Positions 35,597 through 40,379 of a DNA stretch of 64,000 bases are shown one piece after another. Origin of the DNA: an uncultured Chloroflexia bacterium (lineage in GTDB: Bacteria > Chloroflexota > Dehalococcoidia > DSTF01 > JALHUB01); the NCBI GenBank assembly GCA_963726245.1, contig CAVSBT010000025.1:71076-135075 (forward strand), in the 5' to 3' direction. The stretch's first letter is position 1; each line of letters opens with the position of its first letter. The notes under the pieces are model-generated. The model saw only the letters and a list, made by a program, of their open reading frames with translations. It searched no databases and had not been told where the DNA came from. The position numbers and the translations under genes were made by a program.

Positions 35597-37445
35597 TTAC
35601 CGGTCTATGTCCGAGGGTCGGGTGTGAAGACCGCCGAAGAGGAGAATCAGGCCGGCCGCTGCGAAGAGGCCTCCCAAGACTGTCGGCCAGGGGAACGAGC
35701 CATCGCCGGGCCCGCTACCGGCCCTGGGCAGCGCCCTTACCACGGGCGTGGCCACGGGCAGCACCTGCGAGAAGGGGGTGCGCGTCGGCGTCGCCGCCCT
35801 GGCAGTGGGAAGCACGACGCTGCTCCGAGTCGCTGTCGCTGTCGGCGTGTCGCTCGGCGTCGCGGTCTTGGTCGGCGTCGCCGTGTTGGTCGGCGTGTTG
35901 GTCACCGTCGCCGTGTTGGTAGGCGTGTTCGTCACCGTCGGCGTGTTGGTGGGCGTGTTCGTCACCGTCGCCGTCTCCGTAGGCGTCCTCGTCTTGGTAG
36001 GCGTGTTCGTCGGTGTAGCCGTGTCAGTCGGCGTGCTCGTCGGCGTAGCCGTGTCAGTCGGCGTGCTCGTCGGCGTAGCCGTGTCGGTAGGCGTGCTCGT
36101 GGGCGTAGCCGTGTCGGTAGGCGTGCTCGTCGGCGTAGCCGTGTCAGTCGGCGTGCTCGTCGGCGTAGCCGTGTCGGTCGGCGTGCTCGTGGGCGTAGCC
36201 GTGTCAGTCGGCGTGCTCGTCGGCGTAGCCGTGTCGGTCGGCGTGCTCGTGGGCGTAGCCGTGTCGGTAGGCGTGCTCGTCGGCGTAGCCGTGTCAGTCG
36301 GCGTGCTCGTGGGCGTAGCCGTGTCGGTAGGCGTGCTCGTCGGCGTAGCCGTGTCGGTAGGCGTGCTCGTCGGCGTAGCCGTGTCAGTCGGCGTGCTCGT
36401 CGGCGTAGCCGTGTCGGTAGGCGTGCTCGTCGGCGTAGCCGTGTCGGTCGGCGTGCTCGTCGGCGTAGCCGTGTCAGTGGCGTGCTGGTCGGCGTGTTGT
36501 GGCGTGGCGTGCTCGTGGGCGTGTTCGTGGCCGTCGGCGTCCTGGTCGGCGTATTCGTAGCCGTTGGCGTCCTGGTCGGCGTAGGCGTCTTCGTGTGACA
36601 CGGTGGCGTCGGCGTCTTGGTTGGCGTCTTAGTAGCCGGCGTGGCGTCGGCGTCTGGTGGGCGTGTTCGTGGCCGTGGGCGTCGGCGTGGGAGTGGGTGT
36701 CTTGTGACACGGTGGCGTCGGCGTCGGCGTATTCTCCGGGCAGTGATGCTGCGAGGTGTGGCCAAGGAATGTGATCGGGAGAATGCTCTCCGACTCGACG
36801 CACTCCTGGGGCGTCGGCGTGGGCGTGGGAGTGTCGGTCGACGTGCTGGTAGGAGTCGGCGTCTTTGTGCGTGTGCTGGTCGGCGTTCTTGTGCGCGTCG
36901 GCGTGCTGGTGGCCGTGAGCGTCGGCGTGCTCGTGCTCGTAGCCGTCGGCGTACTGGTGGCGGTGGGCGTCGGCGTGCTTGTGGCCGTCGGCGTGGGAGT
37001 GTTGGTAGCCGTCGGCGTTGGCGTGCTCGTGGCCGTTGGCGTCGGCGTGTTGACGGCGGTCGGAGTGGGTGTGTTGGTGGCCGTCGCCGTCGGCGTGTCG
37101 GTGGGTGTCGGCGTGGGCGTTGGCGTGTCGGTGGCTGTGGCCGTCGGCGTACTGGTTGAGCGTCGGCGTGCTGGTGCTGTCGGCGTCGGCGTGCTGCTAG
37201 ACCGGATGGCGGGCAGCCGGGGTGATCGTGGCCGATCACCCGTGGGAGCGCAGTGGACACCGTTCTCGACGTTCGGGGGCGTGTGATCCGTCGCCTGGGC
37301 CTGATTCGCCGGAGAGAGCCACCGCTACCCCCAGGCTCAGGGCCAGGGCCAGCGCCATGCCCACGCCGGTGAGGAGGCGCGCCCGGCCCCTGTCCTCGCT
37401 CAGTAGCCTCTGAAGTCTCCGAATGACGTTAGTTCCGCTGCTCAT
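35597..37445 (-). CDS. Thr/Pro tandem-repeat (mucin-like) surface protein with N-terminal TM/leader and C-terminal LPRAG+TM anchor; several frameshifts
   Basis: N-terminal ORF 37236-37445 (basic leader plus hydrophobic helix); TPT repeats on the minus strand from about 37200 to 35800; C-terminus [38 protein letters not shown]. Confidence 0.75.
36001..36480. repeat. About 16 tandem copies of a 30-bp unit encoding [10 protein letters not shown]
   Basis: GCGTGCTCGTSGGCGTAGCCGTGTCRGTMG repeated head-to-tail, with variation at synonymous positions. Confidence 0.95.
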
Positions 37446-37471
37446 TTAATGGCTGCCTGTCGATGCGCTAC

Positions 37472-37519
37472 AAATAAAACGCCGCCGCCTTCACCGCCTA
37501 CCGGTAAGAAGGCCGCGGC
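37472..37519 (-). terminator. Expression-platform terminator of the gene-proximal riboswitch
   Basis: GCCGCGGCCTTC...GAAGGCGGCGGC followed by GTTTTATTT on the minus strand. Confidence 0.7.
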
Positions 37520-37539
37520 TGAAGACTCTCCGAGAGCGC

Positions 37540-37695
37540 TCTCTTCGGCAGCCCGGCTGTCGTAGCCCCCCACCTCCGCCTTGCGGCGGGCCCCGCCGGG
37601 GGCGGCAGACTGTAGACCCGTGGCTTTGCGCCCGCTCATCGCGGGTCCCCGTCCCTGGGGGTAACGCGGTTTCCCGCGTCTCGCCTTTTCGGAGA
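37540..37695 (-). ncRNA. c-di-GMP-I (GEMM) riboswitch-like aptamer A, with a 30-nt P2 insertion and an enlarged P3
   Basis: Minus strand: CCGAAAAGGCGAG-ACGCGG-GAAA-CCGCGT...GGCGCAAAGCCACGGGTCTAC...CTACGACAGCCGGGCTGCCGAAGAG. Confidence 0.82.
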
Positions 37696-37796
37696 TCTTT
37701 ATTCAGTTGTCCAGGATTACGATATGTATCCTAGGGGTCCCAGGGCCCCGTCTCAGGGCCCCGCCTTCCCCTTGCCGGGCCCCGAGACCCCTAGAA

Positions 37797-37833
37797 TCGT
37801 CAACCCGCTGCCTTCAGTCTGGAAAGCGGCGGG
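37797..37833 (-). terminator. Putative terminator hairpin after the distal riboswitch
   Basis: CCCGCCGCTTTC-CAGACT-GAAGGCAGCGGG followed by a weak U tract (TTGACGATT). Confidence 0.5.
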
Positions 37834-37853
37834 CTGAAGACTCACCGATGGCC

Positions 37854-38009
37854 TCTCTTCGGTAGCCCGGCGGTCGTAGCGCATTGGCCGTAGACCCGTG
37901 GCTTTGCGTCCTCCAACCGCTAAGGATTGGAGGGGCGGGCGACCCGTTCGGTAGCTGTGCCTATGGGCCTCTCGCCAGTACGGTTTCCCGTACCTTGCCC
38001 TTTCGGAGA
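37854..38009 (-). ncRNA. c-di-GMP-I (GEMM) riboswitch-like aptamer B, with a 66-nt P2 insertion
   Basis: Minus strand: CCGAAAGGGCAAG-GTACGG-GAAA-CCGTAC...GACGCAAAGCCACGGGTCTAC...CTACGACCGCCGGGCTACCGAAGAG. Confidence 0.82.
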
Positions 38010-38237
38010 CGTATTCTTGATGTCCAGGTTCAGGGCTCGAGGCTTGGCCATCTTCCTTTCGGCCGCTGCCTCCGCCTTCAACCCGGTCTTCGCCTCCTTG
38101 CGGGTTACGGACCGGAGAAAAGACTGACGATATTTAGGGATGAGGTTAGCTTGACACCATTGGCTGGCTCAATGCGCCTGCAGTCTGCCACAGCCGATAG
38201 AAGAATGTCAAGTAACTATGCCTTCTCCTATGAAACT

Positions 38238-38265
38238 GTAACGCCCGCTTGGGACGTTTGTTACA
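38238..38265 (-). promoter_or_regulatory. ECF (BldN-like) promoter candidate for the riboswitch leader
   Basis: Minus-strand TGTAAC-N16-CGTTAC; a sigma70-like TTGACA (38206-38211)...CAGACT also lies on this strand. Confidence 0.45.
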
Positions 38266-38440
38266 TGCCGTGAACCAAGACGAAGCCTCCATGCAACTCG
38301 TGCGGGCGACACATCAGCAAGAGCCGAGACTACCATGCTCCGAAAAGCGGATGGGTGACGGCCGCTCGCCGGTTTCGTGCCGCGCAGCGACTAAACCGCC
38401 GCCGGACGGAACCGAAACTAGAGTCAGAGGGACCCACAGC

Positions 38441-40379
38441 ATGATGCTAAGGCGCTGGCTCTCAGCAGCGTTCATAACCCTTGTCTGCACTTCCAGGGCG
38501 ATAGCGGCCGCGGGCAGTGGTGAGCTCGGTGTAGATATCGCCAGCCTCGAAACCGGCAGCGCCGGCGACGTGACAGCCGTGGTCAGCGTCTTAGACGCTT
38601 CGGGGCGGCCCGTCCTCGGCCTCACGAAGGACAACTTCGTCGTACGCATCGGCGTCGAGGGTGCCGGACAGGCAGGATCACCGGCCCCTATCAGCCAGGT
38701 GACGGCCGCCGTCAACTCCAATATTGGTGTCGCGGTGGTGCTGGCCGTGGACGTCAGTGGAAGCATGGAGGGCGATCCGCTGGTCCAGGCCCGGGCAGCG
38801 GCGCGCACCTTCGTGGAGGGACTGGCGCCCACGGATAGTGCAGCTCTGGTTACGTTCGGCGACGCCGTGACGCCTGTCCTTGACTTCACCACCGATCGAG
38901 GCGCCGTCTTCGCGGGTCTGGACTCGCTTCAGGGCGCCGGCAACACTGCCCTCTACCAGGCGACGAGTGTCAGCTCCTACATCGCGGCCTCCGCACAGAC
39001 CCAGCGCAAGGCCGTCATTCTCCTTAGCGATGGCGTGGACTACGGAAACCGCAGCAGCATCAGTCGGGAGGCTTCCCTGCAACAAGCGGCGGCGGTGGGG
39101 GCCCCCTTCTTCACCATCGGGCTGGGCAGCGACATCGATCGCGCCTATCTTGAGGCCCTGGCTCAGGGTACGGGCGGCCGCTTTCTGGAGACGCCGACGC
39201 CCCAGGGCCTGAGCGAGCTCTATCGTGCCATTGGCGATTTCCTGCGCAGCCAGTATGTCGTCACACTGAGCGCCGGGACCGTGGACCGGGCGCAGCCCCT
39301 AACGCTGGAGATCGAGGCGACGGTGGGCAGCGCTTCCGGCCTAGCCCACAAGACGCTGGCTGCCGCGGCGACGCCGCCCGCAACCGAGCCTACCATGATA
39401 ACGGTACAGGGCCTGGCATCCGGCGCGAAGATCGACGCACCCGTAAGGCTCTCACTCCAGGTCGCGGGCCAGCCGCCGCCAAGCACATTGCGCGTCACAG
39501 TGGATGGCTCTCCTCTTGCCGAGCTGGCGTCGCCGCCCTATGAGGTGAGCCTGGACCCAGCAGCCTATGCCGCTGGGCATCACGTATTGCGGGTGGAGGC
39601 CGTCGACGCGGCCCCTGGCGTAGGAGCTGTCGAGCTGGGCTTCCTGGCAGCGAGGCCCTCCGGAGGCGGCCCGTCGCCCGCTCTCTTGGCGATGGGAGCG
39701 GTCCTGCTGCTGTTGGCTGCTGCGGGGGCGTTGGGCCTGCTGGTGCTCGCCCGTCGAGCGCCGCCGGCGCCCGCGCTGGCGGGCCGCGTCCGCCCCTGGT
39801 CCTCGCGTCGCAACGGAGAGCCCGAGCCCTGGGAGTCACACTCCGGCGAGGCTCCTACTCTGAGCGACGAGCCTCTGGGCCGTCTGGTCATGGCCTCTGG
39901 TCTGCGGCAAGGAGAGGCGATCGAGATTGGCGCCCGTCCGCGGCGCCTGGGCTCCTCGCCCTCCTGCGACCTGGTGCTGGCAAGCGACGACGGGAGCATC
40001 GCCCCGGAAGAGGCCCGCGTGTGGGTTAGCGAGGGGCGGCTCATGTACCACAAGCTTACCCGCCTCGCCACCTTCGCCACCGATAGTCCCCCCGGTGGCT
40101 GGTTTGTGCTTCAGCCCGGCGAGGAGATGCGAGTGGGCCCGTACAGACCTCATCTTTGAGCTGCTGTTGCCAAGCGACGGTGTTGAGGAAGCGCTCGCGG
40201 CGCTAGAGCAATCGAAGACAGTGCAGTCGTCAGGCCAGAAGGAAGAAGCGAGCCGGCTCGCCGGGTGACCCGGAAGATCAGCCGAGGACGAACAGACGCC
40301 TGCGCCTGAGCCTGCGCCTGCGCCCGAGCCCGAAGCGGCGCCAGAGGACGACTTTGATACTGGCGGCGAAGGTGACTGA
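38441..40379 (+). CDS. vWA domain + Ig-like domain + TM + degenerate FHA-like domain protein; 3' end frameshifted near 40150
   Basis: Signal peptide; MIDAS DVSGSM, GNTALY and LLSDG; TM LLAMGAVLLLLAAAGALGLLVL; FHA-like RLGSSPSCDLVL; acidic PAPEP tail in the shifted frame. Confidence 0.75.

Follow-up and report, generated by a model that had tools for sequence, protein, structure and literature searches.

The class I c-di-GMP (GEMM-I) riboswitches are among the best studied riboswitch classes, and the internal loop of their P2 arm is described as highly conserved. In the original description of GEMM, the P2 arm consists of a 2-bp and a 6-bp stem around a highly conserved 3-nt internal loop, and the arm as given there carries no insert (PMC1950547), in agreement with the initial annotation of this DNA, which took the canonical P2 to be uninterrupted. 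The roles of G20, C92 and the C44-G83 pair have been described, and Vc2 depends on the C44-G83 tertiary pair to reach its docked, ligand-bound fold, a G83C change abolishing folding (PMC11705072). Position 20 is the site of specificity, G or A, for c-di-GMP versus 3',3'-cGAMP (PMC9481103). Tandem copies were already remarked upon in the original GEMM paper (PMC1950547), and tandem GEMM-I is the commonest tandem arrangement, with 347 doublets and 12 triplets reported (PMC9481103); the Bc3-5 triplet of Bacillus thuringiensis is a tested tandem c-di-GMP-I system (PMC9481103, PMC4759541). Variant families of c-di-GMP-I (RF03167 and relatives), which belong to the same clan, are defined by changes in the pocket.

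Here we describe a leader in a Dehalococcoidia MAG (host genome G000; 2.68 Mb, 83% complete) in which two GEMM-I aptamers share these features and add another. Compared with canonical GEMM-I (RF01051; Vibrio cholerae Vc2), both have P1, P2 with a GAAA loop and P3 with its receptor, the landmarks GGC...GCAAAGCC...GCCGGGCURCCGAA, the equivalents of G20, A47, C92 and C44/G83, a position in the 5'-UTR and a terminator-type platform (PMC1950547, PMC11705072). Unlike it, the variant carries 30-73 nt, folded as two abutting hairpins, between the distal 3' end of P2 and C44, and 10-17 nt separate CCGAAG from the P1 3' strand, which in the canonical form adjoins it. The riboswitch class, the tandem layout and the control of surface proteins are already known; the new element is the conserved two-hairpin insert, which makes P2 a four-way junction. 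A literature search returned no description of such P2 inserts, which may nonetheless stand uncommented in the Rfam seed or in the supplementary alignments of PMC1950547.

Leader layout and aptamer anatomy

The window, the 64,000-nt stretch of DNA analysed here and the frame for all coordinates below, has a gene on the minus strand that begins at ATG 37445 and, diverging from it, a VWA-domain gene on the plus strand (38249-40159). The leader lies in the 800 nt that separate the two. Reading the sequence over 37300-38300, we find on the minus strand at 37544-38007 two class I c-di-GMP aptamers with a hairpin after each, the first termed aptamer B (37858-38007) and the second aptamer A (37544-37693). 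Counted from UCCGA to CCGAA, each is 150 nt long; the initial annotation had them correctly as equal in length, and its figure of 156 nt includes flanks.

Aptamer B opens with UCCGA (38007-38003), followed by G20-G21-C22 (37999-37997, G20 being G37999), the 7-bp P2b hairpin GGUACGG/GAAA/CCGUACU with its GAAA cap (37994-37977), an insert of 67 extra nt (37976-37910), A-C44 (37909-37908) and GCAAAGCC, which holds the AAA linker A47-A49 (37907-37900); GGCUACCGAA (37867-37858), with C92 at C37862, comes after the receptor-type P3. The corresponding elements of aptamer A, also on the minus strand, are UCCGA (37693-37689), G20-C22 (37685-37683, G20 being G37685), P2b with GAAA (37679-37664), an insert of 31 extra nt (37661-37631), C44 (37630), GCAAAGCC with the same AAA linker A47-A49 (37629-37622) and C92 (37548). 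G20 and C92 of both aptamers were placed by alignment to the consensus. Insert borders are accurate to 1-2 nt. By fold and sequence, aptamer A also has a long branched P3 tip.

In both aptamers the P2 arm is GC/GC plus a stem of 6-7 bp with GAAA, and the insert sits on the 3' side of the loop. The strand order of the variant is thus P2a 5' (GC), AA, the P2b hairpin, 1-2 nt, the first inserted hairpin (H1), 0-1 nt, the second inserted hairpin (H2), (A)C, P2a 3' (GC) and AAA. The pocket landmarks are kept in A and B alike (G20, C44, A47-A49, G83, C92, and the GAAA loop with its receptor, whose columns are matched by CGGGUCUA...UACGAC in the alignment to the Rfam model). The G21-C46 and C22-G45 pairs are present in both, as are the partners of the C44-G83 tertiary pair, the C just 5' of GCAAAG standing for C44 and the G of (C/A)GCCGGG for G83. 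Although the insert breaks into the strand beside C44, C44 itself stays in place; since the C44-G83 pair is needed for the docked Vc2 fold, the insert adjoins a critical residue without displacing it. P1 is formed by CUCCGA(A) with (U)UCGGAG, is found in all units read, and in one relative (G019) shows a compensatory change from A-U to U-A (CCGAU / AUCGG).

Two further hairpins belong to the minus-strand leader, and together with the P2 inserts they set it apart from described tandem c-di-GMP-I systems. The upstream one, a conserved hairpin CCGGUC / loop CGUAACCCGCAAGGAGGCGAA / GACCGG (38083-38115), stands about 75 nt 5' of aptamer B; it has no Rfam match in a scan of 37300-38300, and all 16 of the 16 family loci examined have a motif, GUAAYNCGCANGGA, upstream of their first aptamer. 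The other is a folded, conserved, G+C-rich hairpin between the switches, CUAGGGGUC...GACCCCUAG (37731-37794), present ahead of the second aptamer in the loci read from f1, f3 and f5, with a U-rich stretch behind it in many relatives. In other respects the leader resembles the described tandem systems, where complete switches, every one of them equipped with a platform, follow one another before a surface- or adhesion-type gene (PMC9481103, PMC4759541). The tandem had been pointed out before; there are indeed two complete switches, and P1, a Y box and a hairpin belong to either of them, but such doublets are ordinary for the class, as the published counts indicate (PMC9481103).

Class membership and scoring by Rfam

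By every sequence feature that could be tested, A and B are members of the c-di-GMP-I class. The reading of two minus-strand GEMM-I aptamers with G20 holds from the landmarks. RF01051 gives aptamer B 43.0 bits over 37858-37971, above its gathering cut-off of 35 bits, and aptamer A 27.3 bits, below it. In neither case does the alignment follow the true P2 arm: for A, 22 model positions including P2 are deleted, and for B the true P2 hairpin is skipped and a chance AGGCACAG inside the insert is used. We rejected this AGGCACAG, which lies inside the H1 loop, as the G20 region of B, as the relatives G001 and G007 are without it while the upstream GAAA hairpin is found in all relatives. Three further GEMM-I aptamers in the host genome are of canonical length and score 64-75 bits.

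It had been suggested that standard models may miss this variant. That is so for aptamer A, but the RF01051 cut-off is passed by 14 of 19 insert-bearing aptamers with an intact pocket (13 of 17 when relatives alone are counted). Those that pass score 39-50 bits, compared with 55-77 bits for canonical second aptamers at the same loci, and the range for insert-bearing aptamers overall is 27-50 bits. The variant family RF03167 (c-di-GMP-I-GGC) is the best match for two insert-bearing relatives, at 40.9 and 32.1 bits, where its cut-off is 59. Unlike the families defined by pocket changes, this leader keeps a canonical pocket and adds peripheral structure. Since that pocket is kept in both sensors, both aptamers would be expected still to bind c-di-GMP.

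The pocket also bears on the proposal that the insert adds a second function, whether a protein site, a second ligand or an altered ligand specificity, which we regard as unlikely. Outside genus g2 and genome G006, every insert-bearing aptamer keeps G20, C92 and A47, the loops of H1 and H2 are otherwise variable, and no partner gene is evident. What speaks for such a function is that H1 and the strands of H2 are conserved in g2, where the c-di-GMP pocket letters are gone, and that five of the six A-type inserts in the first set read have a purine-rich (AGGGA-like) H1 loop.

Structure of the inserted hairpins

In both aptamers H1 and H2 abut in the 3' side of the P2 internal loop and turn it into a four-way junction, in keeping with the earlier reading of inserts at the same P2 loop. 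In the MFE fold, H1 of aptamer B (37934-37976, minus strand) is a 43-nt arm made of GGCG/CGCC, a G-C pair and GGCCC/GGGUC, and H2 (37910-37933) is CCUCCAAUC / CUUAGC / GGUUGGAGG. The initial annotation had likewise seen two hairpins in B, but drew the first as GGCGA/UCGCC with a 4-nt linker; a 43-nt H1 set directly against H2, with no linker, fits the relatives better. In aptamer A, where the fold is joined by the alignment of relatives, H1 is CCCC / CAGGGAC / GGGG (37647-37661) and H2 is CCCGC / GAUGA / GCGGG (37631-37645). Single-sequence folds of B and A are no better than those of shuffled sequences (z of -1.17 for B and -1.26 for A). As these folds alone are unconvincing, support for the structure of the insert was taken from relatives.

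For this purpose a model, R1, was built from nine aligned first-position aptamers with a hand-written structure for P2a, P2b, H1 and H2, and all matches were then re-aligned by the model. Only B-type aptamers were used to build it, because a joint MAFFT alignment of A-type and B-type P2 domains set H1 and H2 out of register. The final R1 set comprises 37 matches in 36 distinct rows, 27 of them insert-bearing; aptamer B scores 72.1 bits over 37899-38007 and aptamer A 52.5 bits over 37621-37693. Covariation of the inserted arms, which had been proposed as the check, is found: in the R1 alignment of relatives, 97.0% of H1 cells are paired, with changes on both sides at five of six pairs, and 94.7% of H2 cells are paired, with such changes at all five, these counts coming from an alignment fitted to the model and from sequences that are kin, many H1 and H2 sequences of family f1 being near-identical. 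In the P2 stems, the 36 distinct rows show 100% pairing for P2a and 92.5% for P2b, where each of the seven pairs has double changes. None of 500 shuffles matched the observed H1 and H2 values, partners slid out of place were only 32-45% paired, and an earlier alignment set gave comparable pairing for H1 and H2.

Because the R1 alignment is model-fitted and its sequences are related, alignment-free folding was added. Folded alone, every one of the 27 distinct inserts forms exactly two exterior helices, which lie 0-1 nt apart and 0-2 nt from each end. Against dinucleotide shuffles the median z is -2.87, and 23 of the 27 fall below -2. Public DNA data include a contig of a related strain in which three helix positions of insert B are changed, with pairing kept at all three (U.G to C-G and A-U to G.U in H2, and G.U to G-C in the inner helix of H1); the other insert B changes listed for this contig are in loops. 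The inserts are thus a genuine structure, conserved and covarying in H1 and H2, as P1 is too. An origin of the B insert from a dispersed repeat was ruled out, its only match in the host genome being to itself.

Outside the helices the inserts are free in form: the H1 and H2 loops vary in length and sequence, the overall length ranges over 30-73 nt, and the one tendency in H2 is for a C-rich 5' arm and a G-rich 3' arm. This freedom is what would be expected if the insert were a neutral, tolerated expansion, in which the site by C44 is merely permissive and H1-H2 is ballast, paired only so as to spare the aptamer. Such an expansion is a possibility we take seriously without favouring it. Set against it are the retention of the insert across four families of the order with many compensatory changes, the survival of H1 and the strands of H2 in g2 despite the loss of the pocket there, and the position of the insert next to C44, part of the tertiary pair needed for docking (PMC11705072). 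As we read it, selection keeps H1-H2 paired.

Distribution in Dehalococcoidia and Omnitrophota

A DNA search of 61 related genomes recovered the same leader, with 82% identity in the congener G001 and 74% in G007, most of the family matching in pieces. In family f1, R1 matches were found in 16 of 18 genomes, all but two canonical-length matches being at this one leader. Across the order, 23 of 93 genomes gave R1 matches (by family, f1 15/17, f3 2/2, f4 1/36, f5 4/16 and f2 0/21), and 25 of the 38 matches listed in that search are at least 70 nt long; the unpublished genome G045 is counted only in the 61-genome and 93-genome tallies. Across the class (151 genomes), only two R1 matches fell outside the order, both of canonical length; the larger searches ran with stricter filters, which may have cost some weak matches. 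When 185,579 species, each represented by one genome, were scanned for an exact pattern, 14 loci came up, among them nine Dehalococcoidia/Chloroflexota MAGs with true inserts and one Omnitrophica MAG with a true two-hairpin insert. The remaining four were discarded as spurious, L078, L082 and L084 being canonical aptamers with a chance match upstream and L083 looking like chance. Within Dehalococcoidia the design is essentially a property of a single orthologous leader in one order, ahead of PT-rich, LPXTG-like surface proteins.

Within that leader the insert is unevenly distributed over the two positions. Both aptamers bear it in the host genome, G001 and G007; the orthologous second aptamer is canonical in its P2 in at least four genera of the family, and g2, g3, g5, g6 and g8 have the insert at the first position only. 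As orthologous aptamers without an insert persist at the second position of the same leader, the insert is not essential, and their persistence in these genera is a further point for neutral expansion. In g2 and in G006 the first element has lost its pocket letters and P3, so this locus is subject to decay, and in g2 H1 and the strands of H2 are kept nonetheless.

The initial annotation had offered cooperativity as one role for the inserts. Coupling of the two aptamers through their inserts would fit the three genomes in which both carry one, but we consider it most improbable. At least five loci (L066, L067, L069, L072 and L086) have an insert-bearing aptamer with no second match within about 1.5 kb on each side, the genera with a plain second P2 have the insert on one partner only, and each aptamer has its own P1 and hairpin.

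Similar inserts occur in Omnitrophota. A second model, R2, matches 24 of 151 sampled Omnitrophota genomes, and two-hairpin inserts are present in five of the 151. Like those in Dehalococcoidia, they are two abutting hairpins on the same strand of the same loop in an aptamer that is otherwise intact; unlike them, they have hairpin sequences unrelated to the Dehalococcoidia ones, and in four of the five genomes the insert comes after C44 (GAC | GCAAAG), whereas in Dehalococcoidia it comes before (A)C44. As the hairpin sequences are unrelated, the two sets of inserts probably arose independently, and we read this as the same loop strand having been extended more than once. That inserts have arisen on either side of C44 in Omnitrophota again suits a neutral expansion at a permissive site.

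Expression platforms

The platform of aptamer B (37804-37848, minus strand) consists of the P1 3' strand UCGGUGAG (37848-37841), the Y box UCUUCAGCC (37840-37832) and a terminator-like hairpin, CCCGCCGC...GCAGCGGG (37833-37804), which has X' (CUGAAGG, 37817-37811) in its loop. That of aptamer A (37471-37533, minus strand) has the P1 3' strand UCGGAGA (37533-37527), the Y box UCUUCAGCC (37525-37517) and, by folding, the terminator stem GCCGCGGCCUUC / GAAGGCGGCGGC (37519-37481), directly followed by the U tract GUUUUAUUUG (37480-37471). A terminator-like hairpin for each aptamer had been noted before, and a hairpin does follow both; in this genome the one after B lacks a U tract, which some relatives do have there. 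A simple promoter and terminator scan found nothing, at neither hairpin nor elsewhere, the loop of the A hairpin, at about 15 nt, exceeding the limit of 8 set in the scan.

The Y box UCUUCAGCC is conserved, stands directly behind the P1 3' strand and is complementary to three segments. Its duplex with X' (GCUGAAGA, in the terminator loop and 3' arm) has a predicted energy of -10.7 to -15.5 kcal/mol in 11 of 11 units, that with X (GGCUGCCGAAGA, the aptamer's own 3' strand) of -7.2 to -12.3 kcal/mol and that with X0 (the purine-rich 5' flank) of -2.1 to -7.5 kcal/mol, the latter two over the same number of units. When the RNA is cut off at X', five of eight units have Y:X' pairing in their MFE structure. 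At full length, again in five of eight, the MFE structure combines the aptamer, P1, the X0:Y extension and the terminator; there Y pairs with the 5' flank through its 5' part, while its 3' part belongs to the terminator stem. For two of 11 units the Y:X state has the lowest energy or equals the antiterminator state, and Y:X would fit an ON switch.

These pairings suggest that both switches would act by termination control, with Y:X' as a candidate antiterminator and X0:Y as an extension of P1. Under an OFF model, ligand would lock P1 and its extension, Y would be held and the terminator would form; under an ON model, ligand would lock X in P3, leaving Y free, and the antiterminator would form. 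Prefix and constrained folds do not decide between the two. We lean slightly towards c-di-GMP promoting termination (OFF), because the 5' flank may extend P1 over part of the Y box, which would otherwise serve as antiterminator, and because the terminator is clear of the aptamer and Y lies directly against P1. Metatranscriptome contigs of relatives (two runs; 37541-37803 and 38081-38115) were rejected as evidence of transcription, since one extends upstream of the likely -10 box and DNA carry-over is possible.

Downstream gene, probably regulated

The gene downstream (35597-37445, minus strand) encodes a signal anchor, PT-rich tandem repeats and a C-terminal LPRAG followed by a hydrophobic stretch and a basic tail. 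Its frame is broken three times in this assembly. An intact orthologue in the complete genome G011 encodes 518 aa and ends in LPSTG, a membrane span and a basic tail; the genes that follow encode another PT-rich protein, with LPSSG... at its end, then one of about 170 aa and an AAA-type ATPase of about 450 aa, and the last two are also found downstream in the window. The host genome has three sortase-family matches above cut-off. No model in Pfam or NCBIfam matches the PT proteins or the sorting-signal tail, so that 'sortase substrate' is a reading by eye; on that reading the regulated gene product is probably a sortase-anchored surface protein. Both switches would then control transcription into the PT-rich surface-protein gene and the genes behind it.

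The broken frame raises the question of whether these are decaying, non-functional aptamers in front of a pseudogene. Aptamer A falls below the Rfam cut-off and the first elements of g2 have decayed, which would agree with such a history, but we think it very unlikely. The pocket letters, P1, Y box and terminators are conserved in the closest relatives (82% and 74% DNA identity) and the orthologous genes are intact in complete genomes. Assembly errors may account for the breaks, since the sequence there is repetitive and G+C-rich and comes from a MAG; contigs from public runs include none over 37230-37334, the region of the first break.

Proposed role of the insert and its significance

Taken as a whole, we consider it quite probable that the leader holds two class I c-di-GMP riboswitches in series, in each of which H1-H2 is a paired rod that tunes folding or docking by C44. 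H1-H2 would be a self-contained peripheral rod, probably stacked coaxially, that leaves the P2a-P2b stack and C44 free to dock on P3, and tuning of folding or docking next to C44 is the role we prefer for it. A more far-reaching version, in which the rod is itself the functional module, either a docking or recognition platform by which the folding pathway of the pocket next to C44 is set or a recruiter of a factor, strikes us as doubtful. If it were true, Dehalococcoidia and Omnitrophota would represent at least two separate origins of the same solution, and the retention of H1 and the strands of H2 in g2 after loss of the pocket would amount to re-use of the module for a new regulatory RNA.

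For GEMM-I as a class, the leader indicates that the strand by C44 can be opened and extended with the pocket kept, which is useful for structural work and for the engineering of sensors. Homology models give such aptamers lower scores and at times miss them, so c-di-GMP regulons may be under-counted in uncultured phyla. For Dehalococcoidia, a group in which little is known of regulation, the leader would tie c-di-GMP signalling to the expression of surface proteins.

Structured elements around the two switches

The orthologous leader in genus g2, and in part in the genome G006, has a changed first element, which lies at L011:1745-1920 (-), L016:1747-1932 (-), L017:1749-1937 (-), L018:1210-1392 (+) and L021 and L022:1731-1915 (both -), with a further locus at L023:461-665 (+). 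The GGC landmark of the c-di-GMP-I aptamer is gone, CGUAAGCC replaces CGCAAAGCC, both P3 and the C92 strand are absent, and the tetraloop has become variable (GUAA, GCAA and others). The hairpin of the distal stem P2b is retained, and of the two abutting hairpins inserted in P2, H1 is kept together with the strands of H2. In the RNAalifold prediction, the 3' strand of H2 and the junction (GGGGGGCGUAA) pair instead with a downstream UUGCGCCCCC. This element could be an aptamer that has decayed, or else a regulatory RNA that has been remodelled.

Two further hairpins are conserved in the leader. The first lies upstream of the first aptamer (38083-38115, minus strand), carries the loop CGUAACCCGCAAGGAGGCGAA and had no match in Rfam. 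Together with a further structured stretch in the following ~75 nt, it was found in all 16 family loci examined, and its 35-nt core is present in short contigs from relatives in two metatranscriptome runs. The second, which is G+C-rich, is found between the two switches (37731-37794, minus strand), and its internal GGAGGCGGGGCC is a repeat of its 5' arm. It stands before the insert-bearing or second aptamer in families f1, f3 and f5, and because a U-rich run follows it in many relatives, it may act as a second terminator or as an alternative-pairing element.

Insert-bearing aptamers in tandem are also present in another phylum, the Omnitrophota, where genome G247 has two c-di-GMP-I aptamers (L094:1501-1584 and 1656-1738, both +) with nearly identical two-hairpin inserts located 3' of C44. 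Elsewhere in the window, a full-length bacterial large SRP RNA was identified at 467-730 (+; 184.9 bits).

Neighbouring genes for surface and likely surface proteins

The PT-rich surface-protein gene downstream of the leader (35597-37445, minus strand) has three frame changes, near 37290, 36650 and 36500, which fall inside or adjoin tandem repeats. The repeats have periods of 30 nt (35996-36588) and 24 nt (36891-37196). Either the gene has become a pseudogene or the frame breaks stem from an error in the assembly. The divergent neighbour (38249-40159, plus strand) encodes a 636-aa protein with VWA and bacterial Ig-like (Big_7) domains, and this product, adjoining the c-di-GMP leader, is likely to be another surface or adhesion protein.
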